A stretch of 64,000 nt of DNA from Verrucomicrobiota bacterium. GTDB lineage: Bacteria > Verrucomicrobiota > Verrucomicrobiia > Opitutales > Opitutaceae. Position 1 is the stretch's first letter; the number at the start of each line of letters is the position of its first letter. Below the pieces are notes generated by a model, which saw nothing but the letters and a program-made list of their open reading frames with translations, was not told the origin of the DNA and made no database searches. The position numbers and the translations under genes were made by a program. Where the stretch lies: NCBI GenBank assembly GCA_049322455.1, contig JBMOQY010000038.1, forward strand, positions 768-64,767, given 5' to 3'. Of this stretch, positions 4,511-28,826 are shown piece by piece.

Positions 4511-5046
4511 TAGAAAATGGTTCGAGAAACGCTTGGCGCGCGCGCTCATAATCTTTGAAGCCTTTTCCTCGGCCCTTGGCAAGCGGCGCATTGGGACAGA
4601 TTTTGCCGGCCGAAGCCGCGCCGGGATCGCGGCTATCCGCTTTGCCTCCCGCCCCGGTATGTCTGGGCGCATTCCGGCAAACCGGCACGGACGGGCAACA
4701 TCGGCGGACGATTGCGCGCGCCCTTTCGCCTGGCAACTCTCCAGGGGTTGCCCCGGGATTCTCCGCACGAGCTTCCACAGCCCCGCGGCCACGGGGCCGG
4801 CCGGGCGGCATCCGAATTCCATTTGCGAAACCCCGCGGCAAGCTGCGGGGAAGCTTTCGGCATTCAAAGACCTCGCGCCCATTTCTCCCTATCGCCCTCG
4901 AAACACTGCCGCATCATCGGCGCGGGTTTTTTCCGGACATGGGCGGCCTGTTTGCACCACGATGACACGGAGGGCATGGGGAAAATCCCGACCCCGGGAG
5001 GACTTTCGCCTTGGTCTGGGCCGGACTTCGTGTTCTTCGTGCCGTC

Positions 5047-8564: not shown

Positions 8565-9215
8565 TCAACCCAGCCGCTTCCGCACGACGGACCAGACCTT
8601 TTTCTCCAGGGCCGCGGGGGCGAGGGTGCCGTCGAAGACGACGACGCGGTCGGGCCATTCCTTGGCGAGCAGCAGATAGCCCTCGCGGACCTTTTTGTAG
8701 AAGGAGATGTTCTCGCGCTCCATGCGGTCGGGCAGGTCGGAGGCGCGCTGGCGCACGCGCTGGAGGCTGATCTCGGTGGGCACGTCGATGACGATGGTGA
8801 GATCGGGCATGACGTTGCCGACGGCGAAACGGTTGATCGCGCTGACCGGACCTGGGGCGAGGTTGCGGGCGATGCCCTGATAGACGGTCGAAGAGTCGAG
8901 GAAACGGTCGCTGAGGACGACGGCACCGCGCTCGAGGGCGGGAGCGATGACCTCGCGCACGACCTGGGCGCGGGCGGCGGTGAAGAGCAGCAGCTCGGTC
9001 TCGGGGCACATCTCGTCGCCGCGGGAGTTGTGGACGATGATGTTGCGGATCTGCTCACCGATCTCGGTGCCGCCGGGTTCGCGGGTGGCGACGACCTCGC
9101 GGCCGGCCTTTTGCAGGCGCTCCGCCAGGCGGATGATCTGGGTGGACTTGCCGCTGCCTTCGGAGCCCTCGAAGGAGATGAGCCTGCCGGCAGGTGTGGA
9201 CTTCTTGGGGGGCAT
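8565..9215 (-). CDS. tmk: Thymidylate kinase
   Basis: P-loop ISFEGSEGSGKSTQ, TREPGGT, DRF motifs. Start at the internal ATG (MPPKKSTPAGRLISFEG). Confidence 0.9.
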   Translation of the reverse strand: MPPKKSTPAGRLISFEGSEGSGKSTQIIRLAERLQKAGREVVATREPGGTEIGEQIRNIIVHNSRGDEMCPETELLLFTAARAQVVREVIAPALERGAVVLSDRFLDSSTVYQGIARNLAPGPVSAINRFAVGNVMPDLTIVIDVPTEISLQRVRQRASDLPDRMERENISFYKKVREGYLLLAKEWPDRVVVFDGTLAPAALEKKVWSVVRKRLG

Positions 9216-9337
9216 GGGAACGGGTGGCCGACAGCGAACCAACGGGCCCGGTTTCGCGCAACCAGATTCAGCGGCGCGGCCCATCGAAAATGCCGTTGAT
9301 TGCGCCGCGCAAACGGGCCAACACTGCCGCCACTTAC

Positions 9338-10048
9338 ATGCCCAGCCTCCTCGCGCCTCCCGCCCTCGTTTCCGTCGTCAACGTCTGGCAGGTCTTCCTC
9401 ACCACCGACCGGGTGGGCCAGGTTGTCATCGCACTCCTCGCGGTGTTCAGCATCTTCGCATGGGCGGTGATGCTCGGCAAACACTCGGAGCTGAAAAAAC
9501 TGCGAGAGCTCAACTTCCGCTTCGAGCGCCTCCTCGGCCAGGAAAAACACATCCTCAGCCTGCCGGAGAACATGCGCCACCGGCGCGACATTCCCTATGC
9601 CGACCTGTTGGCCGACGCGCTCGAAGCCTACTGGCGCGCCGCCGCCATCGGCAAGGAAAAGGGCGACGATTCCGTGCGCTCCCGCATCGAGCATGCGGAG
9701 AACGCCATCCAGCGCGCGCTCGCCCGCCAGTCGCTCCGTTACGAGGCGAGCATGATCATCCTCGCTTCGCTCGTTTCGGGTGCGCCGTTCATGGGCCTGT
9801 TCGGCACGGTGTGGGGCGTGATGGAGGCGTTCGTCTCGGTGTCGGTCATGCAGACGGCGAGCATCCAAACGCTCGCCCCCGGCGTCTCGGCCGCGCTGCT
9901 CACCACCATCGCCGGTCTCGTGGTGGCGATTCCGTCGGTCTTCGGCTACAATATCCTCATCGGCCACGTGAAGACGATGATCACCGAACTGGAAAACTAC
10001 GCCAGCAGCCTCGCCGACCGCATCGAACTCGAGGCCAAACTAGACTGA
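9338..10048 (+). CDS. MotA/TolQ/ExbB proton-channel protein
   Basis: Three-TM pattern with the conserved C-terminal GAPFMGLFGTVWGVM...TTIAGLVVAIP region. Start at internal ATG MPSLLAPPALV. Confidence 0.85.
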   Translation: MPSLLAPPALVSVVNVWQVFLTTDRVGQVVIALLAVFSIFAWAVMLGKHSELKKLRELNFRFERLLGQEKHILSLPENMRHRRDIPYADLLADALEAYWRAAAIGKEKGDDSVRSRIEHAENAIQRALARQSLRYEASMIILASLVSGAPFMGLFGTVWGVMEAFVSVSVMQTASIQTLAPGVSAALLTTIAGLVVAIPSVFGYNILIGHVKTMITELENYASSLADRIELEAKLD

Positions 10049-10054
10049 CGCGCC

Positions 10055-10480
10055 ATGGCCCGCATCTACCGCCGCCCCCGCCACCTGCATCCCGTCGCGG
10101 AGCTGAACATCACCAACCTCGTGGACCTCGGGTTCACGCTGCTGATCATCTTCATGATCGCGACCCCGCTGATCCAGCAGGAGCAGACCATCCCGGTCAA
10201 CTTGCCCGGCGAGTCCCGGCGCGACCAGCAGAAAGCGCCGCCCGACACGGAGTTTGTCGCCGTCTCGGTGGACCGCGCGGGCAACTACTACTTCGGCAGC
10301 CAGCGCGTTTCGCTGCCCGAACTGTCCCGCCTTCTGATGGGCGAGGCCGCGAAGTCGCGGCAGCCCGTCATCCGCATCCGCGCCGACCTCACGCTCCAGT
10401 GGCAGCAGGTCGTGCGTGTGATGGACGAGATCCGGCGGCACAACCTCACAAAGATCACCTTCGACACCGAGGCCCGATGA
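10055..10480 (+). CDS. ExbD/TolR biopolymer transport protein
   Basis: 141 aa. N-terminal AELNITNLVDLGFTLLIIFM TM helix typical of ExbD/TolR. 6 nt after the preceding gene. Confidence 0.85.
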   Translation: MARIYRRPRHLHPVAELNITNLVDLGFTLLIIFMIATPLIQQEQTIPVNLPGESRRDQQKAPPDTEFVAVSVDRAGNYYFGSQRVSLPELSRLLMGEAAKSRQPVIRIRADLTLQWQQVVRVMDEIRRHNLTKITFDTEAR

Positions 10481-10487
10481 GCCCGCC

Positions 10488-11333
10488 ATGCGCGCGACGT
10501 CGTCCAGTTCGCTGCTCCTCTCGCTGACCCTGCACGGGTTCGTGGTGGGGCTGATCCTCGTGGCGACCTGGTTCACCGCGCTGCGCCCCCGGGAGGCGCC
10601 GGTGATCTTCGAGCTTGTGGCCGGGCCGCCCACCGCGCCCGACGAGCTGGTTGCTCCGGCGCTGGGCAACACCACGAAGCCCATCAAGCTGGAGGTGCCC
10701 AAGGTCGAACTCGTCCCGACGGTTGAGGAGCCCGAACCGGAGCCGGTGGTGCAGACACAGCCCGAGCCGGCAGCGGTCAAGCCGGCACCCGTGGAAAAAG
10801 CCAGACCGAAGGAACCCGAAAAACCCAAGGCCGACACCTCGATGGCCAAGGAGGTGAAGAAGGCCCAGCGGATGTCCTACCAGGAGTATCTCAAGAAACA
10901 CCCCACGCCAAAGCAGACCGCCTCCAAGCAGACGGGCAAATCCGCCGCCAAGGTGCCGCGGATCGACGCCACAGGCATCGCCCAAGGCGTGAAAGGCGGT
11001 TCCACTGCCAACACCCGGGGCGGAGGGGGCGGGCGTGCCCTGGCCCGCGAACAGCAGGACCTGTTGAACACCTATATTTCACTGCTCCTGCAGGAACTCA
11101 AAAAGGCCCATGAGCCGCCTCCGGGTGTGAGCGACCGCTTGCAGACCGAGGTGACCTTCGACATCACCGCCAGCGGGGCGATCCTGAATCCGCGCATCAC
11201 CAAATCTTCGGGCGACAACGCCTTCGACGAATCCGTCATCGAAGCGTTTCTGCGGATGCGCTCCATCGGGCCGACTCCGAACCGCCGGTCCGACACCTGG
11301 AAGGTCACGTTCAAGATGCGGGAAGAGGACTAG
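10488..11333 (+). CDS. TonB/TolA-like energy-transducer protein
   Basis: N-terminal TM anchor, Pro/Glu/Lys-rich spacer (EEPEPEPVVQTQPEPAAVKPAPVEKARPKEPEKPK), C-terminal TonB_C-like domain. Third gene of the tolQ/tolR-type trio. Confidence 0.7.
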   Translation: MRATSSSSLLLSLTLHGFVVGLILVATWFTALRPREAPVIFELVAGPPTAPDELVAPALGNTTKPIKLEVPKVELVPTVEEPEPEPVVQTQPEPAAVKPAPVEKARPKEPEKPKADTSMAKEVKKAQRMSYQEYLKKHPTPKQTASKQTGKSAAKVPRIDATGIAQGVKGGSTANTRGGGGGRALAREQQDLLNTYISLLLQELKKAHEPPPGVSDRLQTEVTFDITASGAILNPRITKSSGDNAFDESVIEAFLRMRSIGPTPNRRSDTWKVTFKMREED

Positions 11334-14922: not shown

Positions 14923-16161
14923 ATGAAGCACCCCCGCATCGTCATCACCGGCATCGGCCTCACCGCCCCGAACGGCAACAACCTGGCCGAGTTCCGCGCC
15001 AACCTCCTGCAGGGCGTCTCGGGCATCGGCTGGATGGACGTGCGCTACATGGGCCGGTGGCCGGCCGGCCTCTGCAAGTTCGACCCGCTGAGATACCAGA
15101 AGAAGAAGGATGTGCGCATCGGCACGCGTGCCGGCAGCATCAGCATCTACTGCGCCCGCGAGGCCGTGGCCGATGCCGGCATCAACCCGGACGCCTGCGA
15201 CAAGAGCCGCATCGGGGTCTTTCTCGGCATCACCGAGCACGGGAATGTCGAGACCGAGAACGAGGTCTATAACATCTCGCAGTTCAAATACGACACGAAG
15301 TTCTGGACGCACCACCACAACCCCCGAACCGTGGCCAACAGCCCCGCGGGCGAGGTGTCGCTCAACCTCGGCACGACCGGCCCCGCCTACACGATCGGCG
15401 CCGCCTGCGCCGCGGGCAACATGGGCCTCATCCACGCCACCCAGATGCTGCGTCTGGGCGAGGTGGATCTCGCCATCTGCGGCGGCGTGAGCGAGAGTCC
15501 GCAGACCTTCGGCATCTTCGCCGGTTTCAAGAGCCAGAACGCCCTCGCCACGCACGCCGATCCCACCAAGGCCAGCCGCCCTTTCGACAAGGCCCGCAAC
15601 GGCATCGTCATCTCCGAGGGCGGCGCCATCTACACGCTGGAGCGCCTGGAAGACGCCCGGGCCCGCAGCGCAAGGATCTACGCCGAGATCGCCGGCTATT
15701 GCGTGAACTCCGACGCCACCGATTACGTGCTGCCCAACCCCGAGCGCCAGGCCGAGTGCGTCGAAAAGGCGCTCGGCAACGCCGGCCTGACCGTGGACGA
15801 CATCGATATCGTCAACACCCACGCCACCTCGACCCCACAGGGCGACATCCAGGAGTGTCAGGCGCTGGCCAAGGTTTTCGGCCGGCGCAAGGAACCGGCC
15901 GCCATCAACAACACCAAGAGCTTCATCGGCCACGCCATGGGCGCCGCGGGCGCTCTGGAGCTGGCGGGCAACATCCCGAGTTTCGACGACCTTGTGGTGC
16001 ATCCGACGATCAACGTGGATGAGCTTGATCCCCAGTGCGATATCCCGGGCCTCGTTATCAACCGGCCGCGGGCCGTTAAACGGGTTGACGCAATCCTGAA
16101 TAATTCCTTTGGTATGCTTGGAATCAATTCCACCCTCATCATCAAGCGTTTCCGCACCTGA
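14923..16161 (+). CDS. Beta-ketoacyl-ACP synthase I/II family (FabF-like), cluster-specific
   Basis: Cys-His-His triad contexts: IGAACAAGN, NTHATSTPQGD, KSFIGHAMGAAGALE. Confidence 0.9.
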   Translation: MKHPRIVITGIGLTAPNGNNLAEFRANLLQGVSGIGWMDVRYMGRWPAGLCKFDPLRYQKKKDVRIGTRAGSISIYCAREAVADAGINPDACDKSRIGVFLGITEHGNVETENEVYNISQFKYDTKFWTHHHNPRTVANSPAGEVSLNLGTTGPAYTIGAACAAGNMGLIHATQMLRLGEVDLAICGGVSESPQTFGIFAGFKSQNALATHADPTKASRPFDKARNGIVISEGGAIYTLERLEDARARSARIYAEIAGYCVNSDATDYVLPNPERQAECVEKALGNAGLTVDDIDIVNTHATSTPQGDIQECQALAKVFGRRKEPAAINNTKSFIGHAMGAAGALELAGNIPSFDDLVVHPTINVDELDPQCDIPGLVINRPRAVKRVDAILNNSFGMLGINSTLIIKRFRT

Positions 16162-16174
16162 CACCTCCGCAATC

Positions 16175-16429
16175 ATGACGAAAGAAGAATGCCGCAAGCT
16201 GGTCATCGACATCATCTCCGACATCGCGCCCGATGAGGACCTGAGCAGCGTGAAGCCGGACGTCCGGCTCCGCGACCAGCTCCAGCTCGATTCGATGGAC
16301 TTCCTCGACATCGTCATGGAACTGCGCAAGCGCCACGGCATCGAGGTGCCCGAGGCCGATTACATGCAGCTCGCCTCGCTCGACAGCTGCGCGGAATACC
16401 TGACGCCCAAGTTCCAGGCCAAGGCCTGA
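16175..16429 (+). CDS. Acyl carrier protein (divergent, cluster-specific)
   Basis: 84 aa from the internal ATG. Phosphopantetheine site LQLDSMDFLDIVMEL (DS-motif), diverged from the AcpP consensus GADSLDTVELVMAL. Confidence 0.85.
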   Translation: MTKEECRKLVIDIISDIAPDEDLSSVKPDVRLRDQLQLDSMDFLDIVMELRKRHGIEVPEADYMQLASLDSCAEYLTPKFQAKA

Positions 16430-16457
16430 AGTTGATTTCAGCCAGCACGATGGTGTA

Positions 16458-16488
16458 GGGCGGGGTCTCGGAACCCCGCCTTTTTGTT
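16458..16488 (+). terminator. Terminator/attenuator-like hairpin inside the lipid operon
   Basis: GGCGGGGT-CTCGG-AACCCCGCC followed by TTTTTGTT. The next gene's ATG (16490) follows directly. Confidence 0.45.
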
Positions 16489-16489
16489 G

Positions 16490-17914
16490 ATGAAAGACTC
16501 CCATTACGACGTGGCCATCATCGGCGCCGGCATGTCCGGACTCGCCGCCGGCATCCGGCTGGCCCATTTCGGCAAGAAGGTCTGCATTTTCGAGCGCCAC
16601 AACGCGCCGGGCGGCCTCAACAGCTTCTACAGCATCGCCGGCCGCAAGTTCGACGTCGGCCTGCATGCGATGACCAATTACGTGCCGCCGGGCGTGAAAG
16701 GCACGCCGCTGGGCAAGCTCCTGCGGCAGCTCCGCATCGAGCGCGAGGATTTCGCCCTCTGCCCGCAAAAACGCTCGCGCATCGCCTTCCGCGACCGCGA
16801 GCTGAAGTTCACCAACGACTTCGCCGTGCTCGACGCCGAAGTGCGGGAAAAATTCCCGGCGCAGGCCGACGGCTGGCGGTCGCTCGTGCAACTCGTGAAG
16901 TCCTACGACGACGTGGCGCTCGACGCGAAGCCGCTGTCGGCCCGCGAGGTCGTGGCCCGCCACATCACCGATCCGCTGCTGACCGACATGATCTTCTGCC
17001 CGGTCATGTATTACGGCAGCGCGCAGGAGCGCGACATGGAGTTCGGGCAGTTCGTCATCATGTTCAAGGCGCTCTTTCTCGAAGGATTCGCCCGGCCGCT
17101 GGAGGGCGTGCGCGTGATCATCCGCGTGCTGCTGGAGAAATACCGTCAGGCCGGCGGCGAGCGCCGCATGAAGTGTGGCGTGGCGAGGATCATCGAGCGC
17201 GCGGGCAGGGCGGCGGCGCTCCGGCTCGATGACGGCTCCGAGGTCACGGCCGACCACGTCATCTCGTCCATCGGTTACCCCGAAACGATGCGCGCCTGCG
17301 AGCCGGCACATGCCGCCGAGGCCGAGGCGAACACCGGCGCACTCTCATTCGTCGAGACGATCTCGGTGTTCAGGCAACCGCCCGCGACGTGGGGCTGGGG
17401 TGACGACACGATCGTCTTCTTCAACGACTCCGACCGCTTCGACTATTCGCGGGCGAAGGACCTGGTGGATCCGCGCAGCGGCGTCGTCTGTTTTCCCAAC
17501 AATTTCGACTACGCCGACGGGGAGCTGCCCGAGGGCTTGTTCCGCGTGACCTGCCTGGCCGATTACGGGAAATGGACGGCGTTGGCGGAGCCCGATTACC
17601 AGGCGGCCAAGACGCACTGGCTGGGTGCGATGCAACGCAGCGCGCGGCGGTTCCTGCCGCCGGTGTCCGACGCCGTGCTCATGGAAAACCTGGTCGCCAC
17701 CGACATGTTCACGCCGCGCACGGTGCGGAAGTTCACCGGCCACCTCAACGGAGCGATCTATGGCGCTCCCCGCAAGGTGAAGGACGGCCGCACCCACCTG
17801 AGCAACCTTTACCTCTGCGGCACGGATCAAGGGTTCCTGGGCATCATCGGCGCGATGCTCAGCGGCATCTCGATGGCCAATTATCACATCTTGCAAAAGG
17901 GCGGCCCCGGCTAA
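16490..17914 (+). CDS. FAD-dependent oxidoreductase, phytoene-desaturase (CrtI/amine-oxidase) family, copy 1
   Basis: Dinucleotide fold YDVAIIGAGMSGLAAGIRLAHFGKKVCIFERHNAPGG. Track start is a TTG at 16484; the ATG at 16490 is preferred. Confidence 0.8.
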   Translation: MKDSHYDVAIIGAGMSGLAAGIRLAHFGKKVCIFERHNAPGGLNSFYSIAGRKFDVGLHAMTNYVPPGVKGTPLGKLLRQLRIEREDFALCPQKRSRIAFRDRELKFTNDFAVLDAEVREKFPAQADGWRSLVQLVKSYDDVALDAKPLSAREVVARHITDPLLTDMIFCPVMYYGSAQERDMEFGQFVIMFKALFLEGFARPLEGVRVIIRVLLEKYRQAGGERRMKCGVARIIERAGRAAALRLDDGSEVTADHVISSIGYPETMRACEPAHAAEAEANTGALSFVETISVFRQPPATWGWGDDTIVFFNDSDRFDYSRAKDLVDPRSGVVCFPNNFDYADGELPEGLFRVTCLADYGKWTALAEPDYQAAKTHWLGAMQRSARRFLPPVSDAVLMENLVATDMFTPRTVRKFTGHLNGAIYGAPRKVKDGRTHLSNLYLCGTDQGFLGIIGAMLSGISMANYHILQKGGPG

Positions 17915-17932
17915 GATTCCCGCTTACCCCCT

Positions 17933-18793
17933 ATGAAAACATCCCGCCTGTTCCCCGTTCTTGCCATGAGCGTTGCCCTCGCGACCGGCGTCTTCGCCGG
18001 CGAGGCCTACAAGCAGCACCTCGGTCTGCAGCTTTGGAGCCTGCGCGACCAGGTCAAAGCCGACGTGCCCGCCGCCCTCGACTGGGTCAAGGCTCAGGGT
18101 TTCACCGAGGTCGAGACCGCCGGCACCGGCGAGCGCTCAGCCGGGGAGTTTCGGAAACTTCTCGATGAACGCGGACTGAAGGCCGTCAGCGCCCACATCA
18201 GCTACGACGCCCTCGCCAAGGACCTGCCCGGAGCGATCGCGGCCGCCAAGGCGCTCGGGGCGAAATACGTGATGACCGCGTGGATTCCCCACAAGGGCCC
18301 CTTCACCGCCGAGATGGCCCGGGCCGCTGCGGCCGATTTCAACAAATGGGGCGAGGCTTTCCGCAAGGAGGGCATCACCTACGGTTACCACCCGCACGGC
18401 TACGAGTTTGTCCCCCTGCCCGAAGAGGGTGGCAAGACGCCCTTCGACATCATCGTGGCCGGCACGAAACCGGAATTCGTCAGCTTCGAGATGGACGTGT
18501 TCTGGGTCTTCCATGCGGGCGTGGATCCGGCGGCCCTGCTCAAACGCCATGCCGACCGCTGGTCGCTGCTGCACGTGAAGGACATCCGCAAGGGCGCGGT
18601 CACGGGCCTGTCCACGGGTGGCGCCCCGCCGATCGACAACGTCGCCGTCGGCACCGGCCAGATCGACTGGCCCGCCGTCCTCGGGGCCGCCCAGGAGATC
18701 GGCGTGCAGCACTATTTCATCGAGGACGAGACGCCCACGCCACTCGTGTGCATTCCCGACAGCCTGAAGTATTTGCGGGCGCTCAAACTCTGA
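17933..18793 (+). CDS. Xylose-isomerase-like TIM-barrel protein (sugar phosphate isomerase/epimerase family) with signal peptide
   Basis: [25 protein letters not shown] signal. [10 protein letters not shown]..., [21 protein letters not shown] motifs typical of PF01261-type proteins. Confidence 0.8.
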
Positions 18794-18836
18794 GTTGCGC
18801 TTTTCCCGGGGCCCCACTCACATGGGGCCCTTTTTC

Positions 18837-20288
18837 ATGGCTTACGACTGGCTCAAAGGCACCGACGACCACTACGACGTGGTGGTCATCGGCAGCGGAC
18901 TCGGCGGCCTGACCGCCGCCAATGTGCTCGCGAAGTGCGGCCACAGGGTGCTGCTGCTCGAGCACCATTACCAGCTCGGCGGCCTCGCCACGTGGTTCAC
19001 CCGCAAGGGCGGGCATATCTTCGACATCTCCCTGCACGGTTTTCCGATCGGCATGATCAAATCCTGCCGCAAATACTGGGGGCAGGACATTGCCGACTCG
19101 ATCGTGCAACTCAAGGGGGTGCGGTTCATCAACCCGCAGTTCGAGGTCAACACGACCTTCGACCGCGAGGATTTCACCCGCCAGCTCGTCGAAAAGTTCC
19201 GGGTGCCGGCCGAGACCGTGGAGCGGTTCTTCACCGACCTGCGGGCGATGAACTTCTATGACAACAACGCCGAGACCACGGGACAGATGTTCGAGCGCTA
19301 CTTTCCGGGCCGCGACGACGTGAAACGCCTGCTGATGGAGCCCATCGCCTATGCCAACGGCTCCACCATGGACGACCCGGCCATCACTTTCGGCATCGTG
19401 TTCTCCAACTTCATGAGCAAGGGGGTCTATACCTTCCGGGGCGGCACCGATGTGCTCGTGAAGAAGATGGCCGCCGAGCTGAAGAGGAACGGCGCCGAGC
19501 TGCGCAAGCACGTGCTCGTCGAAAAAATCCTGACCGAGGAGCGCGACGGACGCAAAGTTGTCACGGGCATCGTGGCCAACGGCCGCACCATCCGCTGCGA
19601 TGCGGTGGTCTCGAATTCCAACATCAAGAACACGGTTCTGCGCCTGGCCGGCGAGGAGAACTTTTCGCCTGATTTTGTCGCCCAGACCAAGGCCGTGCGC
19701 GTCAACAGCAGTTCCTGCCAGGTCTATCTCGGCATCCGCAAGGGCGAGACGCTCCCCCACATCGGCGACCTCGTCTTCACCTCCGAGGAGCCGAAATTTT
19801 CCAGCGAAAAGCTCGTGGATCTCTACACGACCAGCCGGACCTTCTCGATGTATTACCCGGACACCCGGCCGGGCAGCGACCGCTACACCGTCGTCGTCTC
19901 CATCAACGCCCGCTATGATGACTGGAAGCGCATGGGGGAGGAGGAATACGCGAAGCAGAAGCAGCGTCTCATCGACGAGTCCATCGCCGCGTTGGAGAGG
20001 TTCATCCCGGATGTGCGTGCCAAGATCGACTGGATGGAGGCCGCCACACCGAGGACCATCGAATACTACACCCGCCACTGGAGCGGCACGTCGTTCGGCA
20101 CCAAGTTCGAGGGTCTCAAGGTCTCGATGGATCTGCCCAACCAAGTGCCCGGCCTCTACCACGCCGGCTCCGTCGGCATCATCATGTCGGGCTGGCTCGG
20201 CACCATCAATTACGGCGTGATCGTCGCCAACCAGGTGGACAAGTTCATCGCCGCAAAGAAACGCGCCGCCGAGCCGGCCCACGCCTGA
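18837..20288 (+). CDS. FAD-dependent oxidoreductase, phytoene-desaturase (CrtI) family, copy 2
   Basis: [37 protein letters not shown]. Track start is a TTG at 18795; ATGs at 18822 and 18837 are alternatives. Confidence 0.8.
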
Positions 20289-20295
20289 TTATCCC

Positions 20296-20745
20296 GTGAC
20301 TGAAGTCGAAAAACTCATCCCGCACCGTCCGCCGTTCCTGTTCGTGGACGAAATCATCTCCCACGATGGCGAGACCCTCGTGGCCAGACGCACCTGGCGC
20401 GCCGACGAGGAATTCTACAAGGGCCACTATCCCGGCGCCCCGATCACCCCGGGTGTGCTGCTGAGCGAATCCGTGTTTCAGACCGGCGCCTGCCTGATGG
20501 CCCGGCTCATGGCCGGCGCCGCCGGGCAGGGCGGGGGCGTGCCGCTGCTGAGCAAGGTGTCCGACATCCGCTTCCGCCTGCCGGTTTATCCGGGCGACAC
20601 CGTCACCATCGAGGTCAAACGCAAGGAGACCGCCGGAGAGTTTCATTTTCTCACCGGCGTGATGAAGAACGCCGAGGGCAGGAAGGTCATGAACGTGGAG
20701 TTCGCCGTCGCCTGGAAGAAACCCGAGGGACAGGTCACCGCCTGA
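20296..20745 (+). CDS. FabA/FabZ-family 3-hydroxyacyl-ACP dehydratase (hotdog fold)
   Basis: LIPHRPPFLFVDEI...YKGHYPGAPITPGVLLSES (catalytic His/Glu contexts). GTG start. Confidence 0.85.
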   Translation: MTEVEKLIPHRPPFLFVDEIISHDGETLVARRTWRADEEFYKGHYPGAPITPGVLLSESVFQTGACLMARLMAGAAGQGGGVPLLSKVSDIRFRLPVYPGDTVTIEVKRKETAGEFHFLTGVMKNAEGRKVMNVEFAVAWKKPEGQVTA

Positions 20746-20746
20746 G

Positions 20747-21562
20747 ATGAGCGATTTTCTCCAGCTTTCCGGGAAAGCCTTCCTGGTGCAGGGCGTTGCG
20801 AACAAAAAAAGCGTCGCGTGGTTCATCGCGAAGACGCTGGAGGAACAGGGCGCGCGCGTCGTCTATGCCGTGCGCTCCGAAGCGCGGAAGAAGTCGCTCG
20901 AAGCCCTGCTGGCCGGCCGGCCCGTGTTCATCTGCGATGTCGAGCAAGAGGGCGCAGCGGAGCAGCTCGCCGCCGCGGTCGCGGCAGCCGGCCTGACCCC
21001 GCTGCATGGCCTGGTGCATTCCATCGCCTTCGCCAACTATCGCGAGGGCTTCAAGACCTTCGCCGAGACCAAGCGGCAGGACTTCCTGCAGGCCACGGCC
21101 ATCTCGGCGTTCTCGTTGGTGGAGCTGGCGCAGGCCTTCAGGCCGCATCTCGCCAAGAACGCCTCCGTCATCTCCATCGGCATCTCTTCGCTGCTGGTAA
21201 CCCCCGACAACTACGGTTACATGGGCCCGATCAAAGCCGCCTTGGAGTCGTGCTCGCGGTTCCTGGCCAAGTCCTTCGGCGCATCGGGCAGCGGGGTGCG
21301 CTTCAACGTCGTGGGGTCCGGCCCCCTCAAGACCAGCGCCTCGGCCGGCATTCCCGGCTACCTGGAGAGCTACCTCTACGCCGAGAAGCTGACCTTCCGG
21401 AAGCGGAATCTCGAGACCCAGGAGGTGGCGAACGTCGCGGCCTTTCTTCTGAGCGAGCGCAGCAGCGGCCTGAACGGCACGACGGTCGTCGTGGACGCCG
21501 GGCTCGGGAGCAATTATTTCGACAAGGAGATCATCCGGCTGGCGATGCGGCCGGAGAAATAA
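20747..21562 (+). CDS. FabI-like enoyl-ACP reductase (SDR family)
   Basis: N-terminus LSGKAFLVQGVANKKSVAWFIAKTLEEQGARV resembles the FabI GVASKLSIAYGIA signature. 271 aa. Confidence 0.75.
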   Translation: MSDFLQLSGKAFLVQGVANKKSVAWFIAKTLEEQGARVVYAVRSEARKKSLEALLAGRPVFICDVEQEGAAEQLAAAVAAAGLTPLHGLVHSIAFANYREGFKTFAETKRQDFLQATAISAFSLVELAQAFRPHLAKNASVISIGISSLLVTPDNYGYMGPIKAALESCSRFLAKSFGASGSGVRFNVVGSGPLKTSASAGIPGYLESYLYAEKLTFRKRNLETQEVANVAAFLLSERSSGLNGTTVVVDAGLGSNYFDKEIIRLAMRPEK

Positions 21563-21565
21563 GCC

Positions 21566-22603
21566 ATGCGCTTCAAACACGCCTGCATCGAATCGCTGGC
21601 CGTGGCGCTGCCGGACGAGGTCTGGACCTCCGCCGCCATTGAGGAGCGGCTGAAACCGCTCTACGACCGCCTGCGACTACCCGTCGGACGGCTGGAGCTG
21701 ATGACCGGCATCAAGGAGCGGCGCATGTGGCCTGCGGGGACCAAACCGTCCGACGCCAGCGCCGCCGCAGGCCGCAACGCGCTCAAGGCATCGGCGCTGC
21801 GCGCGGAGCAGATGGAGGTTTTCATCCATTCGGCGGTCTGCCGCGACATGCTGGAGCCGGCCACGGCGTCGTTCGCGCACCGCAAGATCGGCCTTGGAAC
21901 CGGCTGCCAGGTCTTCGACATCTCCAACGCCTGCCTCGGGTTTCTCAACGGGCTGGTGACGCTCGCCGCCATGATTGACGCCGGGCAGATCCGGTGCGGC
22001 ATGGTGGCCTCGGGGGAGAACGGGCGCCCGTTGGTGGCGCGCACGATCAAGCACCTGTTGGAGACGCCCCTGGACCGCAACGCCATCAAGCCCTTCTTCG
22101 CCAATCTCACCATCGGATCGGCCGCGGTGGCGGCGGTCGTCTGCCACGAAGACCTTGTCCCGGCCGGCCGGCCGAAGCATCGGCTGGTTTGCGGCAGCGT
22201 CCATGCCGAGACGAAGCACAGCGAGCTCTGCCAGGGCGACAGCGCGGGTGACGCGTTGGTGATGGAAACCGACTCGGAGCAGTTGCTCCACGCCGGCATG
22301 GAGGTGGCCAAGACGACCTGGGCCAAATTCGCCGCCGAGTCCGGCTGGGCCGTTGGCACGCCCGAGCGCGTCATCACACATCAGGTCGGCTCCGCGCATC
22401 GTCGGAAACTCTACGAAACGCTCCAGATGGACCCGGCCAGGGATTACGCCTCGGTGGAGTTTCTCGGCAACACCGGGTCGGCCGCCTTGCCGGCGACTCT
22501 GGCGCTGGCCGCGGAACAGGGTGCGCTGCGCGCCGGACAGAAGGTGGCGTTGCTGGGCATAGGCAGCGGATTGAACAGCCTGATGCTGGCGGTCGAATGG
22601 TGA
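21566..22603 (+). CDS. Thiolase-superfamily KAS-III-type condensing enzyme (FabH/OleA-like)
   Basis: Cys-His-Asn contexts FDISNACLGFLNG, ITHQVGSAH, LGNTGSAALP. C-terminal LLGIGSGLNSLMLAVEW. Confidence 0.85.
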   Translation: MRFKHACIESLAVALPDEVWTSAAIEERLKPLYDRLRLPVGRLELMTGIKERRMWPAGTKPSDASAAAGRNALKASALRAEQMEVFIHSAVCRDMLEPATASFAHRKIGLGTGCQVFDISNACLGFLNGLVTLAAMIDAGQIRCGMVASGENGRPLVARTIKHLLETPLDRNAIKPFFANLTIGSAAVAAVVCHEDLVPAGRPKHRLVCGSVHAETKHSELCQGDSAGDALVMETDSEQLLHAGMEVAKTTWAKFAAESGWAVGTPERVITHQVGSAHRRKLYETLQMDPARDYASVEFLGNTGSAALPATLALAAEQGALRAGQKVALLGIGSGLNSLMLAVEW

Positions 22604-23478
22604 GAAACGCACAGCTTCCCGGCTGGCTCAAGGAGCTGTATCCGTTCGAACCGAAGCGCTTCGAGACAGGTTCCGGCGCGATGAGCTATCTGGACGAAGG
22701 CTCGGGCGATGAAGCCGTGCTGATGGTCCATGGCAATCCGACCTGGTCGTTTTTCTACCGCAACGTGATGCTGGCCCTGCGAGGACGCATCCGGTGCATC
22801 GCGCCGGACCACCTCGGCTGTGGTCTCTCGGACAAGCCGCAGGATTACGACTACACGCTGGCCAACCATGTGGCGAATCTGGGGCGACTGCTGGATTCCC
22901 TGAACCTGCGCAAGATCCACCTGATCGTGCACGACTGGGGCGGCCCCATTGGACTGGGAGCATGTCTGCCACGGCACGAAAAACTCGGGCGCGCGGTCAT
23001 TCTGAACACAGCCGCCTTCGCCGACACCGTGGTCCCTTGGCGCATCCGGTTTTGCCGCATTCCGGTGGTCGGGGAGGTCGCCGTGCGCGGTTTCAACGCC
23101 TTTGCCTGGCCGGCCACCTGGATGGCAGTGACCAAACCCCTGCCGAACTCCGTCAAACGCGGATTCCTGTTTCCCTACGATTCCTGGGCCAACCGCATCG
23201 CCACGCACCGCTTTGTCCGCGATATTCCACGAGGGGTGGGAGCCTCAAATGATCGCGCCCTGGCGAAAATCGAGGAGACGCTGCCCAGACTGCGCTCAAA
23301 CCCCGTCCGTCTCATTTGGGGCGGGCAGGATTTCTGTTTCAACCGGCACTATTTCGACCGCTGGAAGCTGATTCTTCCCAACGCCGCCGGCGATTACCTG
23401 ACCGAAGCAGGGCACTACCTGATCGAGGACGCCCCTGAAACCGTAGTCAGCCTGATAGAGCAGCACATTCTGCCGTAA
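22597..23478 (+). CDS. Haloalkane-dehalogenase-family alpha/beta hydrolase (OleB/HLD-like)
   Basis: HGNPTWSFFYR and Asp-nucleophile elbow HDWGGPIG. Overlaps the preceding gene by 7 nt. Confidence 0.85.
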   Translation: MVRNAQLPGWLKELYPFEPKRFETGSGAMSYLDEGSGDEAVLMVHGNPTWSFFYRNVMLALRGRIRCIAPDHLGCGLSDKPQDYDYTLANHVANLGRLLDSLNLRKIHLIVHDWGGPIGLGACLPRHEKLGRAVILNTAAFADTVVPWRIRFCRIPVVGEVAVRGFNAFAWPATWMAVTKPLPNSVKRGFLFPYDSWANRIATHRFVRDIPRGVGASNDRALAKIEETLPRLRSNPVRLIWGGQDFCFNRHYFDRWKLILPNAAGDYLTEAGHYLIEDAPETVVSLIEQHILP

Positions 23479-26712: not shown

Positions 26713-27618
26713 TCAGGCGGGGGTGTCCGCGTATTCGGCGAAGGATTTGACCACCCAGTTCCTGTCCGTGCGCTTGGCCAGACCGGCAAGCACGGCGCCG
26801 GGGCCGCATTCCCAGAACTCGGTGGCGCCGGCGGCGACCGCGCTGCGCATGCAGTCCTCCCAGAGGACAGACGAGACAATCTGCCGCACGAGTGCCTCGC
26901 GAATGGCGGCAGGTTCGCGGACAGCCTGCCCGGTGGTGTTGGTGAAGACCGTGAAGCGCGGGGCCTTGAACGCCACACCGGCCAGATAGCGGGCGAACTC
27001 CTCGCGGGCCGGCTCCATCAGGCGGCTGTGATAGGCGCCGGCGACATTGAGCGCGATGACGCGTTTCAGGCCCTTGTGCTTGGCGGCGGCGACGAGCGCG
27101 TCCACCCTGGATTTCTCCCCCGAAACGATGATCTGGCCGGGGGCGTTGAAGTTGGCGGCTTGAATGTCGAATTCACGGCACAGCGCCTCGATCGTCGCGC
27201 GCTCCTCGCCGATGATGGCGGCCATGCCGCCTGTGGATTTTTCGCAGGCTGCTTGCATGAGCCGGCCGCGCTCGGCCACGACCGCCAGTCCGGTGGCGAA
27301 GTCGAACACTCCGGCGGCCGCCAGTGCGGTGACTTCCCCGAGGCTGAGCCCGAAAGCCATCGTGACCGCGGGCACCACGCCTTTCTCCCGGAGCGTCGCC
27401 AGCATTGCCAGACCGTGCACATAGAGCGCCGGCTGGCAGACTTTGGTCTGGGTGAGTTCGGCATCGGGGCCCTCAAAGCTGACCTTGGTCAGGCTCCAGC
27501 CGAGCACGCGATCGGCCTCGTCGTAAAGCGACCGCGCGGCGGGGGAGCCTTCGTAGAGCGACTTGCCCATGCCGACCTTCTGGGCGCCCTGACCTGCAAA
27601 AAGGAGTGCCAATGACAT
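26713..27618 (-). CDS. fabD: Malonyl-CoA:ACP transacylase
   Basis: LLFAGQGAQKVGMG and GLSLGEVTAL active-site serine motif. Start at internal ATG MSLALLF. Confidence 0.92.
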   Translation of the reverse strand: MSLALLFAGQGAQKVGMGKSLYEGSPAARSLYDEADRVLGWSLTKVSFEGPDAELTQTKVCQPALYVHGLAMLATLREKGVVPAVTMAFGLSLGEVTALAAAGVFDFATGLAVVAERGRLMQAACEKSTGGMAAIIGEERATIEALCREFDIQAANFNAPGQIIVSGEKSRVDALVAAAKHKGLKRVIALNVAGAYHSRLMEPAREEFARYLAGVAFKAPRFTVFTNTTGQAVREPAAIREALVRQIVSSVLWEDCMRSAVAAGATEFWECGPGAVLAGLAKRTDRNWVVKSFAEYADTPA

Positions 27619-27731
27619 AGATGAAGGGCCGGTTAAACCCACCCCCCGGCCAAAAACCAAGTCCTAAAAATCACCGCCGCCGGGGCGGCAATCCGCCGGC
27701 CGGGGCGCCGTTCCGGGCAGCACGGGAAGCA

Positions 27732-28826
27732 TCAGGTCTTGAAGAAGATGCCCTTGAGGTTCATCTCCAGCGCCGCGGGGTTCGGCGAGAAGCGGAGCCC
27801 GTCGGCCTTGCTGATCTTGCCTTCCTTGATGAGACGGTAGAGGTCCTTGTTGAAGGATTTGGACATGCCATCCGCGCCCGAATCGAGGAGCTGCTGGATC
27901 TTGTCGTTCTGACCGTCGAGGATCAGGTTGCGGACGGTGGCGTCGGCCACGAGGATCTCGTGTGCGGCGAAACGGCCGCCGCCTTCGAGCGCGGGGATGA
28001 GCTTCTGGCAGATGAAACCGCGCAGGGAGCCGGCGATCTGGCGGCGGGCCTGGGCGATTTGCTCCGGGGGGAAGAATTCAAATAGGCGCGTGAGCGACTG
28101 GGCCACGGTGGCGGCGTGCATGGTCGAGAAGACCAGGTGGCCCGTTTCGGCGGCGGAGATGGCGGTCTCGAACGTCTCCTTGTCGCGCATTTCTCCGATC
28201 AGGATGATGTCGGGATTCTGGCGCAGCACCGATTTGATCGCCAGCTCGAAGCTCGGCACATCGAGCCCGATCTCGCGCTGCTGAAACAGGGACTTGTCGT
28301 CGCTGAACGTGTATTCGATCGGGTCCTCGATGCTCACGATGTGCTTGTCCATGTTCTGGTTCACCCAGTTCAGCATGGCGGCCATGGTGGAGCTCTTGCC
28401 CGAGCCCGTGGCGCCGCAGACCAGGAGGATGCCATCCTTGGACTGGGCCAGCTTGATCAGGGTCTCGGCTTCGATCTTCAGTTCCTCAAAGGTGGGCGGG
28501 CGGCTCTTGATGTGGCGGAATACGATGCTCACCAGCCCGCGCTGATGGAAGGCGTTCACACGGAAGCGGCCGATGTCGTCGGCGGCGTAGGCGAAGTCCA
28601 CCTGGCCGTCCTTGTCCCACTTGTCCTTGAAAATGCGGGGCACCTTCTCGTCCACGAAGGCCTGCGCTTGCTCGCAGCTGATCGGGTCCATCTCCACCGG
28701 GCGGAGCCGGCCGCCAAGGCGCAGGTAGCCGGGTTTTTCGGACTTGATCACGATGTCGCTGGCACCGCTTTCCACGGCGAGCTTAAGCAGATCGTTAACA
28801 ATTTCGGTATGAAGTGTGGTGCTCAT
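27732..28826 (-). CDS. pilT: Type IV pilus retraction ATPase PilT/PilU family
   Basis: 364 aa. Walker A GATGSGKSST, IEDPIEY, GEMRD, AHEILV-type motifs. Confidence 0.9.
   Translation of the reverse strand: MSTTLHTEIVNDLLKLAVESGASDIVIKSEKPGYLRLGGRLRPVEMDPISCEQAQAFVDEKVPRIFKDKWDKDGQVDFAYAADDIGRFRVNAFHQRGLVSIVFRHIKSRPPTFEELKIEAETLIKLAQSKDGILLVCGATGSGKSSTMAAMLNWVNQNMDKHIVSIEDPIEYTFSDDKSLFQQREIGLDVPSFELAIKSVLRQNPDIILIGEMRDKETFETAISAAETGHLVFSTMHAATVAQSLTRLFEFFPPEQIAQARRQIAGSLRGFICQKLIPALEGGGRFAAHEILVADATVRNLILDGQNDKIQQLLDSGADGMSKSFNKDLYRLIKEGKISKADGLRFSPNPAALEMNLKGIFFKT

Follow-up and report, generated by a model that had tools for sequence, protein, structure and literature searches.

A type II chain-building gene cluster with two flavoproteins, associated with ole genes, in the Opitutaceae

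The cluster and its genes

The stretch of DNA analysed here (hereafter the window) is 64 kb long, has a GC content of about 65% and belongs to a member of the Opitutaceae (Verrucomicrobiota). At 14923-23478 it holds a run of nine genes on the plus strand, which encode a beta-ketoacyl synthase (KS), an acyl carrier protein (ACP), two FAD flavoproteins (FAD1 and FAD2) separated by a TIM-barrel protein, a dehydratase (DH), an enoyl reductase (ER), OleA and OleB. This cluster is the Opitutaceae form of a widespread, uncharacterised type II chain-building system that is associated with ole genes and carries two flavoproteins; full-text searches found no literature description of the cluster or of its link with ole. 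An earlier annotation of the same DNA (the original prediction) had read it as an accessory set resembling type II fatty acid synthase (FAS), which makes a modified acyl or hydrocarbon product.

Families were assigned by means of Pfam and NCBIfam profiles, and divergence was judged by the cut-offs of the NCBIfam equivalog models. Relatives were collected by a scan of one genome per GTDB species, in which at least 597 genomes encode a relative and the best 80 are almost all Opitutales. Related genomes were read in windows of up to 10 kb either side of FAD2, and single loci are cited by their number (L003 and so on); L090, L108, L110, L111, L122, L152, L158, L162 and L166 come from a metagenome scan seeded with distant relatives. 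The genes in question are the following:

14923-16161, plus strand: KS, FabF-like elongating beta-ketoacyl-ACP synthase (ketoacyl-synt N and C domains)
16175-16429, plus strand: ACP, dedicated, 84 amino acids (PP-binding; attachment Ser in LDSMDF)
16490-17914, plus strand: FAD1, flavoprotein of the amine-oxidase / CrtI-CrtISO superfamily (Amino_oxidase, NAD_binding_8)
17933-18793, plus strand: secreted xylose-isomerase-like TIM barrel (AP_endonuc_2; N-terminus resembling a signal peptide)
18837-20288, plus strand: FAD2, flavoprotein of the same superfamily as FAD1 and signature gene of the system (Amino_oxidase, NAD_binding_8)
20296-20745, plus strand: DH, FabZ-like 3-hydroxyacyl-ACP dehydratase (FabA domain; catalytic His and Glu)
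20747-21562, plus strand: ER, FabI-type enoyl-ACP reductase (adh_short_C2, 196 bits; Tyr-x6-Lys)
21566-22603, plus strand: OleA, head-to-head (non-decarboxylative Claisen) condensing thiolase (NF006720, 432.5 bits)
22597-23478, plus strand: OleB, HLD-like alpha/beta hydrolase, a beta-lactone decarboxylase (Abhydrolase_1; 7-nt overlap with oleA)
26713-27660, minus strand: fabD, malonyl-CoA:ACP transacylase (TIGR00128, 303.5 bits; cut-off 260.9)

All nine open reading frames (ORFs) of the cluster are present, with a third-position GC of 0.76-0.89 that is typical of real genes at about 65% GC. With the likeliest start codons (16175 for ACP, ATG 16490 for FAD1, 17933 for the TIM-barrel gene and ATG 18837 for FAD2) the gaps amount to 13, 60, 18, 43, 7, 1, 3 and -7 nt; the FAD2 start is backed by the consensus N-terminus of its orthologues, MAYDWLKG. 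The nine plus-strand genes of the original prediction, with their coordinates, spacing and motifs, were all reproduced from the ORFs, and its domain calls (KS, ACP, two FAD enzymes, TIM barrel, DH, ER, KAS-III/OleA and HLD/OleB) agree with Pfam and NCBIfam. The housekeeping fabD that it had placed elsewhere in the window is a true FabD, located 3.2 kb downstream of the cluster and outside its operon. Neither a ketoreductase (KR) nor an acyltransferase, AMP-ligase or thioesterase is encoded inside 14923-23478.

Divergence from housekeeping fatty acid synthesis

The KS reaches 319 bits on the fabF model TIGR03150, for which the cut-off is 494. Its closest matches in the Protein Data Bank (PDB) are FabF enzymes (E = 7e-70), its triad is intact (Cys in GAACAAG, His in NTHATST and His in FIGHAMG) and kept in 34-35 orthologues, and it is a divergent FabF paralogue, not the housekeeping FabF. 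The ACP scores 31-37 bits on ACP equivalog models with cut-offs of 66-84 (acyl_carrier, 31 versus 70); LDSMDF is invariant in 38 orthologues, a basic RKRH follows helix II, and no specialised ACP in the PDB is its nearest match. On FabZ models the DH obtains 92-93 bits, the cut-offs being 113 and 155. Its PDB matches are FabZ enzymes, including anammox amxFabZ entries that are no closer than ordinary FabZ; the catalytic His and Glu motifs are kept in 68-69 orthologues, and the protein also matches the ApeI-like and ApeP-like families of aryl-polyene clusters. The ER scores at most 167 bits on FabI models with cut-offs of 299-477, has FabI enzymes as PDB matches (E = 4e-38) and shares the motif YGYMGPIK (Y-x6-K) with its orthologues. 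Overall, KS, ACP, DH and ER reach about 35-80% of the FabF, AcpP, FabZ and FabI equivalog cut-offs. Since two controls from the same window, fabD (303.5 versus 260.9) and galE (427.6 versus 262.3), both pass, these low scores are not due to a general divergence of the phylum. The original proposal of a specialised set resembling type II FAS, built on a divergent ACP of its own and including two flavoproteins of the CrtI/CrtISO superfamily, is supported; the scores lie far below the equivalog cut-offs.

Could the cluster nonetheless be the sole, housekeeping type II FAS of the organism? The 64-kb window contains no second fabF, acpP, fabZ or fabI, fabD is only 3 kb away, and the cluster is universal in the Opitutaceae. 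Across all loci, with flanks of up to 10 kb and approximate E. coli queries, the search for a second acpP, fabZ or fabG recovered only the cluster DH and the KR of L079. Indirect evidence weighs against a housekeeping role: the model scores, next to a fabD that passes; the lack of KR and FabH, the KAS-III-like gene of the cluster being OleA; the attachment of the set to ole operons in other lineages, Nitrospirota and the Planctomycetota type among them; and several Opitutales loci that have no KS-ACP beside FAD2. Synthesis of anteiso and iso branched-chain fatty acids needs a branched-primer FabH. Opitutia membranes, which are dominated by anteiso-C15:0 and iso-C15:0 (PMC12193912), demand such an enzyme. 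For the 64-kb window and the flanks of up to 10 kb read in related genomes, housekeeping FAS was put aside on the scores, the missing genes and the add-on occurrence in other phyla, and we consider it extremely improbable.

Two further classes of chain builder were compared. An aryl-polyene cluster was dropped, as there is no chain length factor (CLF), no second ACP/DH pair, and no lyase or export gene. Membership of the Pfa synthases, which make polyunsaturated fatty acids (PUFA), is contradicted by the fact that all proteins are single-domain and that the KS scores 99 bits on omega_3_PfaA versus 1010.

OleA, OleB and the search for OleC and OleD

OleA scores 432.5 bits on NF006720 (cut-off 285) and at most 95 bits on fabH models with cut-offs of 249-292. 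Since the OleA proteins of full oleABCD arrays score 392-414 bits on NF006720, this is an OleA-type family. The full-length PDB match is OleA of Xanthomonas campestris (3row and others, E = 8e-56), FabH reaching just 1e-19. Cys143, His285, Asn315 and the OleA-specific Glu117 of 3row are all aligned, with the Glu of MLEPAT placed on that of YLEPST (the second base, from the partner subunit). Cys, His and Asn are kept in 56-57 orthologues and LEP in 55 of the 56 itemised, and OleA is 51% identical to its counterpart in a canonical oleABCD operon (L084). For OleB the closest PDB entries are of the subfamily-III HLD type (8ckp and 8ooh, E = 9e-38); it is 47% identical to OleB of canonical oleABCD operons (L079 and L084), and the Asp of HDWGG and the catalytic His (GH motif) are conserved in orthologues, while none of the curated models that matched is specific for OleB. 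Judged by their sequences, the last two genes are true OleA and OleB orthologues, as active-site residues, NF006720, PDB matches and identity to canonical oleABCD all agree with the OleA/OleB-like label first given to them. OleA would then condense two long acyl thioesters without decarboxylation.

With an AMP-binding motif and with two divergent OleC/OleD pairs as tblastn queries, no oleC or oleD was found in the window or in any of 80 Opitutales loci. Searches for OleC homologues with queries from L079 and L162 returned proteins of Nitrospirota and Planctomycetota and none of Opitutaceae. The only extended short-chain dehydrogenase/reductase near the cluster was tried as a hidden OleD and rejected, as it is a true GalE (427.6 bits versus 262.3). 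Other authors have reported oleABCD in metagenome-assembled genomes (MAGs) of Opitutae, one of which is locus L035 (PMC5673642), and oleC in Opitutaceae MAGs (PMC10176705). In a Rhodopirellula sp. MAG (L170, 10001-11686) an OleC homologue stands alone among unrelated genes, so that full dispersal of ole genes is possible, as is presumed for oleC and oleD of the Opitutaceae.

Linkage of the set with ole genes in other lineages

In a Nitrospirota locus (L079) one strand carries oleA-oleB-oleC-oleD-KS-ACP-FAD1-(DUF4357)-FAD2-KR-DH-ER, with oleD and KS overlapping by 4 bp. The KS and FAD2 of this locus are 70% and 66% identical to those of the window, and its OleABCD proteins are 81-85% identical to those of L084. 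Since that related contig has plain oleABCD, the FAS-like set of L079 looks like an add-on behind the native oleD. Two loci (L111 and L152) show an uninterrupted 11-gene array, KS-ACP-FAD1-OleA-OleB-OleC-OleD-FAD2-KR-DH-ER, which in L111 is bordered by unrelated FKBP/RNase T and MobB genes. Elsewhere the array is broken into convergent halves: KS-ACP-FAD1-OleABCD on one strand faces FAD2-KR-DH-ER in L166 and L090 (where the contig ends within FAD1). In L086, a low-GC contig of 2.5 Mb with a FAD2 relative of 38% identity, about 4 kb separates FAD2-KR-DH-ER from oleDCBA, which is convergent with it. Planctomycetota-type loci (L108, L110, L158 and L162) have the order OleC-OleD-KS-ACP-FAD1-FAD2-DH-ER, and OleC of L162 groups with Planctomycetota. 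Loci of the L122 type have OleA-KS-ACP-FAD1-FAD2-KR-DH-ER, followed by a 4'-phosphopantetheinyl transferase (PPTase), a companion also known from other carrier-protein systems, and a DUF362 protein.

Complete OleABCD is linked in L079, L086, L111, L152 and L166, and among specific NCBIfam models the linked OleC fits olefin beta-lactone synthetase best and the linked OleD 2-alkyl-3-oxoalkanoate reductase. When the 60 loci with at least 5 kb on either side of FAD2 are considered, an ole gene is present in 48, a DH in 55 and an ER in 48. At least four widely separated lineages have the set in company with oleABCD, and three of them are assignable (Verrucomicrobiota, Nitrospirota and Planctomycetota-type). 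The linked KR is FabG-like and is found between FAD2 and DH in most non-Opitutaceae relatives; the original statement that there is no ketoreductase therefore holds for the window and fails for the system, in which most clusters outside the Opitutaceae include one.

Two peculiarities of single loci may be added. In L122 (840-5087 and 13398-15450) a 1415-amino-acid protein resembling acyl-CoA dehydratase activase / benzoyl-CoA reductase precedes the array. In L113 and L121 the OleA-KS segment is repeated, by duplication or as an assembly artefact.

Conservation in the Opitutaceae and the FAD1-FAD2 junction

The order KS-ACP-FAD1-FAD2-DH-ER-OleA-OleB is kept throughout the Opitutaceae, in dozens of species-level genomes and so beyond chance, and FAD2-DH-ER-OleA-OleB is contiguous in more than 50 Opitutales loci. 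The surroundings are conserved as well (M50-sigma54 regulator-galE ahead of the cluster and lepB-lepA-fabD-pilT behind it), lepB-lepA-fabD being kept beside the cluster in 16 loci. Median identities across Opitutales loci are 77% for KS, 87% for ACP, 75% for FAD2 and 77% for ER, with lepA (83%), fabD (74%) and lepB (51%) as references. As these identities match those of lepA and fabD and exceed that of lepB, we are dealing with a core gene set and not an island; a genomic island was also dropped on account of a GC content equal to that of the flanks and the conserved synteny. The term accessory, in the sense of variable, does not fit a cluster that lies in a housekeeping region and is about as conserved as lepA and fabD across the family.

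The nine-gene unit likewise has to be reduced. Eight genes are conserved in the Opitutaceae (KS, ACP, FAD1, FAD2, the FabZ-like DH, the FabI-like ER, OleA and OleB); FAD1 and FAD2 are adjacent (130 bp or less) in 20 of the 41 loci that hold both, and a TIM homologue occupies the junction in 3 of these 41. The few loci with a TIM homologue at this position are L023, L027, L034 and L037. The TIM-barrel gene is a lineage-specific insert and probably not a member of the pathway, and a role of its product as pathway enzyme was rejected for this variability. The junction itself (17915-18836 in the window) is a hot spot for unrelated cargo: Band_7 with a small ORF in Oleiharenicola (L003), DUF4357 in L079 and inserts of up to 5.4 kb in L030.

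Conservation at this level would also suit an unsaturated-fatty-acid (UFA) branch of membrane lipid synthesis. In such a branch DH and a flavin isomerase or dehydrogenase (FAD2, FAD1) would form cis-3-enoyl-ACP, the private KS would elongate it and the private ER would finish the cycles; the products would go to phospholipids, with OleA and OleB as neighbours using the same pool. The location in a housekeeping region, with proteins about as conserved as lepA and fabD, is in line with this, as are the 16:1 and 18:1 acids that occur in Opitutia (PMC12193912) and the genomes in which FAD2 has no ole genes nearby. KS, DH and ER together mirror the UFA cluster of E. faecalis, which likewise needs its own enoyl reductase (PMC9671860), and the flavoenzyme FabX is an established UFA dehydrogenase/isomerase (PMC8626469). 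A branch of the main FAS, however, needs no separate divergent ACP, and one cis double bond needs fewer than two different flavoproteins. Ole genes are found in 80% of the well-flanked loci. Moreover, the addition of the set behind oleD in the Nitrospirota lineage and the embedding of ole genes within it in L111 and L152 are hard to explain unless its function is tied to Ole. We regard the UFA branch as improbable.

The two flavoproteins

FAD1 and FAD2 share 24% identity. The best NCBIfam match of FAD1 is carot_isom, with 72 bits versus a cut-off of 587, and crtI_fam gives 57 versus 238; FAD2 obtains 103 bits on carot_isom (587), 103 on desat_CrtD and 89 on crtI_fam (238), all below cut-off. 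These scores correspond to 12-37% of the curated cut-offs for carotenoid enzymes, whereas Pfam Amino_oxidase is above its cut-off for the flavoproteins. FAD1 has only CrtI 4dgk (E = 8e-8) and 4rep (1.6e-6) as PDB sequence matches. An AlphaFold2 model of FAD2, built from a shallow alignment (pLDDT 65), has 4REP and CrtI 4DGK as top Foldseek matches at a TM-score of about 0.5, and nicotine and monoamine oxidases come close behind in this ranking. The designation CrtI-family can be retained at most at the level of superfamily or fold; it does not extend to the curated family, because the crtI_fam cut-off was failed and carotenoid isomerase is the best of the weak matches.

Identity to FAD2 is 82-92% among its 120 best homologues, of which the named ones belong to Lacunisphaera, Oleiharenicola, Didemnitutus and other Opitutaceae; relatives at E <= 1e-30 make up only 205 clusters at 50% identity. 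The FAD1-FAD2 junction splits the cluster into two modules. FAD1 travels with KS and ACP (KS-ACP-FAD1 are together in Opitutaceae, L079, L111, L152, L166 and L162), and FAD2 heads a FAD2-(KR)-DH-ER module; some Opitutales have FAD2-DH-ER-OleA-OleB with no KS-ACP-FAD1 nearby. A natural fusion of FAD2 with a FabZ-like DH (P0122, 625 amino acids; L089, 2209-5792), both halves of which are named by JGI, is followed by a FabI-like ER and then by a radical SAM gene. Such a fusion indicates that FAD2 works with DH on thioester-bound intermediates. In one Verrucomicrobiota MAG (L039) FAD1 appears as two tblastn matches, of 65% and 68% identity, which suggests that the gene is frameshifted or duplicated there.

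Compared with the anammox proteins Kuste3336/Kuste3607, FAD1 and FAD2 give E-values of 4e-19 and 4e-23 at about 25% identity; the matches to Pantoea CrtI are slightly weaker (8e-11 and 4e-8). Orthology to the anammox ACP, FabZ and PD-like proteins was rejected, the similarity being distant. Nor does the window resemble the anammox ladderane candidate cluster (kuste3603-3608 type, with amxACP-amxFabZ-FabF-noncanonical FabF-PD-like-B12 radical SAM), as it lacks radical SAM genes and a non-canonical second KS.

These affinities bear on another reading, in which OleA would serve a different specialised lipid. Long-chain ketones or 2-alkyl-branched (mycolic-like) acids could arise via KR-DH-ER, or a conjugated polyene or ladderane-type precursor via ER skipping and flavoprotein desaturation. 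All Opitutales loci examined are without OleC and OleD, and the 2-alkyl-3-keto compound that OleA forms is in principle a possible substrate of KR-DH-ER. The matches of DH to ApeI-like and ApeP-like aryl-polyene families, the slightly greater nearness of the flavoproteins to Kuste3336/Kuste3607 than to Pantoea CrtI, and the radical SAM gene at the fusion locus L089, as in the anammox and Desulfotalea clusters, also point in this direction. Yet OleB, a beta-lactone decarboxylase, would have no role in the absence of OleC, and elsewhere the set accompanies complete oleABCD with a separate OleD besides KR. Genes for a radical SAM enzyme, a CLF, an ammonia-lyase or a glycosyltransferase are missing from the window, the anammox flavoproteins are just about 25% identical, and the ACP is not nearest to any specialised ACP in the PDB. 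We consider such a product unlikely.

Proposed pathway

In our view the cluster is a dedicated ACP-based line for chain assembly and double-bond editing that supplies the head-to-head Ole pathway, a reading to which we assign a probability of roughly 0.6. The analysis establishes directly which genes are present, that their active sites are intact, that they diverge from the housekeeping models, that OleA and OleB are orthologues and that ole linkage recurs across lineages; every chemical step, the role of the flavoproteins, the substrate of OleA and the product are inferred. The modified acyl or hydrocarbon product of the original prediction can be narrowed, a head-to-head condensed hydrocarbon being the best-supported class through the identity of OleA and OleB and the ole linkage.

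The private KS would elongate chains on the private ACP, and malonyl-ACP would in all likelihood be provided by the housekeeping FabD next to the cluster. Reduction of the beta-keto group would be left to a FabG encoded elsewhere in the Opitutaceae and to the in-cluster KR in most other lineages, and the FabZ-like DH and FabI-like ER would complete the reductive cycle. FAD1 and FAD2 would act on ACP-bound intermediates, FAD2 directly with DH, such that C=C bonds are kept, moved or added; the chain would therefore exit unsaturated, unlike an ordinary saturated or branched membrane acyl chain. OleA would join two such chains head to head, OleD and OleC (unlinked in the Opitutaceae) would reduce the product and close the beta-lactone, and OleB would decarboxylate the lactone to a long-chain, probably polyunsaturated, membrane olefin.

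A more specific version is tentative and, to our mind, somewhat doubtful. FabZ does not isomerise. As the DH is of this non-isomerising type, it is attractive to speculate that FAD1 and FAD2 supply the isomerisations of, and so replace, the FabA-type domains of Pfa synthase. KS, ACP, (KR), DH, ER, FAD1 and FAD2 would then be a discrete type II, oxygen-independent synthase of polyunsaturated chains, which hands a 16:4-like acyl-ACP to OleABCD for polyenes of the hentriacontanonaene type and corresponds to the Pfa-independent route postulated for Desulfotalea. One flavoprotein could convert trans-2 to cis-3 and the other trans-2 to cis-2, or desaturate beside an existing double bond. If true, this would also explain polyolefins in ole-bearing Verrucomicrobia; Opitutaceae TAV2 is said to make C31:9, reportedly as described by Sukovich and collaborators in 2010. 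A survey of pfa-like clusters makes no mention of Verrucomicrobiota (PMC3098273).

Several points weigh against a line that feeds the Ole pathway. The window, and the 10 kb around FAD2 in each of the 80 Opitutales loci, contain neither oleC nor oleD nor a KR, so that the pathway is incomplete as seen, and its completion in the Opitutaceae depends on the genome annotations of other authors. The OleA enzymes characterised so far take acyl-CoA as substrate; the present model assumes a hand-over from ACP, and the cluster encodes neither thioesterase nor ligase. FAD2 is alone at its locus in some Opitutales genomes (L050 and L057) and 12 of the 60 well-flanked loci have no ole gene, hence the flavoprotein can be placed, and perhaps function, apart from Ole. 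Conservation at housekeeping level would also fit a general role in membrane lipids, and for every member of the system the product is one that we infer. Finally, heterologous expression of the anammox relatives of FAD1 and FAD2 did not yield polyunsaturated fatty acids (PMC10139942).

Neighbourhood and other features of the window

Outside the cluster the window consists of housekeeping genes. The upstream border is the true galE (minus strand); downstream, on the minus strand, lie lepB, lepA, the true fabD and pilT. Within the cluster the spacer between ACP and FAD1 contains a terminator- or attenuator-like hairpin at 16457-16482 (plus strand), with a 10 bp stem of which seven pairs are G-C, followed by TTTTGTTG; as a partial terminator it could yield a surplus of KS/ACP transcript. 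A second hairpin with a T-run (18808-18831) lies 3' of the TIM-barrel insert. The number of hairpin/T-run sites in the region is not above shuffle expectation, so that the first hairpin is to be read as a pattern match only.

Type II secretion and type IV pilus genes flank the region at 762-4882 and 27732-28826 (both minus strand), with a T2SSE ATPase that has an MshEN domain, a secretin and a PilT-like ATPase, and an ExbB-ExbD-TonB set lies at 9194-11333. The segment 41360-51342 (minus strand) stands out by its high GC (0.70-0.73) and by an AT skew that is strongly positive. Its genes specify a membrane module similar to complex I/Mrp (an Oxidored_q6 protein with 4Fe-4S domains, a NuoH-like NADHdh and three Proton_antipo_M subunits) that resembles an energy-converting hydrogenase-related complex, with a SulP/STAS transporter after it.

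Significance

Since 2009 it has been asked where C31 polyolefins get their polyunsaturated precursors in bacteria without Pfa, such as Desulfotalea and, probably, Opitutae and some Planctomycetes. The compact gene set makes this question of a Pfa-independent precursor testable, and the 11-gene array could be transferred in one piece to a heterologous host. The cluster is best read as an Ole pathway with a dedicated precursor synthase, and the prospect that it harbours new double-bond chemistry is a realistic one. If the flavoproteins do edit acyl-ACP double bonds, the CrtI/CrtISO superfamily would gain a reaction of a new type, and a new, probably anaerobic, way to make unsaturated lipids would be at hand. 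The system also has a bearing on the phytoene-dehydrogenase-like genes of anammox lipid clusters and on engineered hydrocarbon production. Even with an ordinary product it would illustrate cleanly how a private ACP line can serve a single membrane hydrocarbon.

Comparison with known systems

With OleABCD of Xanthomonas campestris and Shewanella oneidensis the window shares orthologous OleA and OleB, to which related loci add OleC and OleD. In described ole clusters either the general FAS or Pfa synthase provides the acyl chains, and a type II KS/ACP/DH/ER set of their own, with two flavoproteins, has been described for none of them. In the Opitutaceae, furthermore, oleA-oleB are split from oleC-oleD and stand in one operon with FAD2-DH-ER.

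One of the closest precedents is pfa-ole linkage, in Shewanella and as pfaDABC-oleABCD-pfaE in Geobacter bemidjiensis, where an ole-linked chain builder that uses a carrier protein makes the unsaturated olefin precursor (PMC4882568, PMC3098273, PMC6463001); Pfa synthase supplies the 16:4 precursor of C31:9, and pfa and oleABCD occur in tandem in Geobacter (PMC4882568, PMC3098273). The PPTase beside the set in L122 recalls PfaE in pfa clusters. Pfa, however, is a multidomain megasynthase of type I, whose DH domains are FabA-like and isomerise and whose ER resembles FabK; the parts of the present cluster are discrete, and comprise a FabZ-type non-isomerising DH, an ER of the FabI type and the two flavoproteins.

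A second close precedent is Desulfotalea psychrophila, which makes C31:8 and C31:9 hydrocarbons although it lacks Pfa synthase (Rattray et al. 2009, PMC2649909). It has FASII clusters with pfam01593 'phytoene dehydrogenase-like' genes, which are syntenic with anammox clusters, and a novel anaerobic FASII-based route to polyunsaturation was proposed for it in 2009 (PMC2649909). The anammox (kuste3603-3608, kuste3335-3352) and Desulfotalea clusters resemble ours in a divergent FabF, ACP and FabZ beside pfam01593 flavoproteins. Kuste3336 and Kuste3607 show no CrtI activity (PMC4790861), and amxFabZ is active on its own amxACP only (PMC10139942), a pairing that sets a precedent for a private ACP line. 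Those clusters differ by their radical SAM enzymes, methylases, non-canonical FabF, acyl-CoA ligase and glycosyltransferase, and by an unlinked FabI; no ole linkage has been described for them, whereas the present set is physically joined to ole genes.

UFA modules (FabA/FabB of E. coli and fabI-fabN-fabO of E. faecalis) also combine a DH with a KS that extends the unsaturated intermediate, in Enterococcus with a specific ER. FabX of H. pylori is a flavoenzyme that creates and shifts a double bond on acyl-ACP; it is an FMN/[4Fe-4S] enzyme with a fold unrelated to that of FAD1 and FAD2. All these systems use the housekeeping ACP, lead to phospholipids and have no ole linkage. CrtI, CrtISO and CrtD probably share with FAD1 and FAD2 the FAD-binding amine-oxidase fold, and carot_isom, desat_CrtD and crtI_fam are the weak best matches of the two. 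Unlike these enzymes, FAD1 and FAD2 have no carotenoid genes nearby, their partners are ACP-dependent, and one relative is fused to a FabZ domain.

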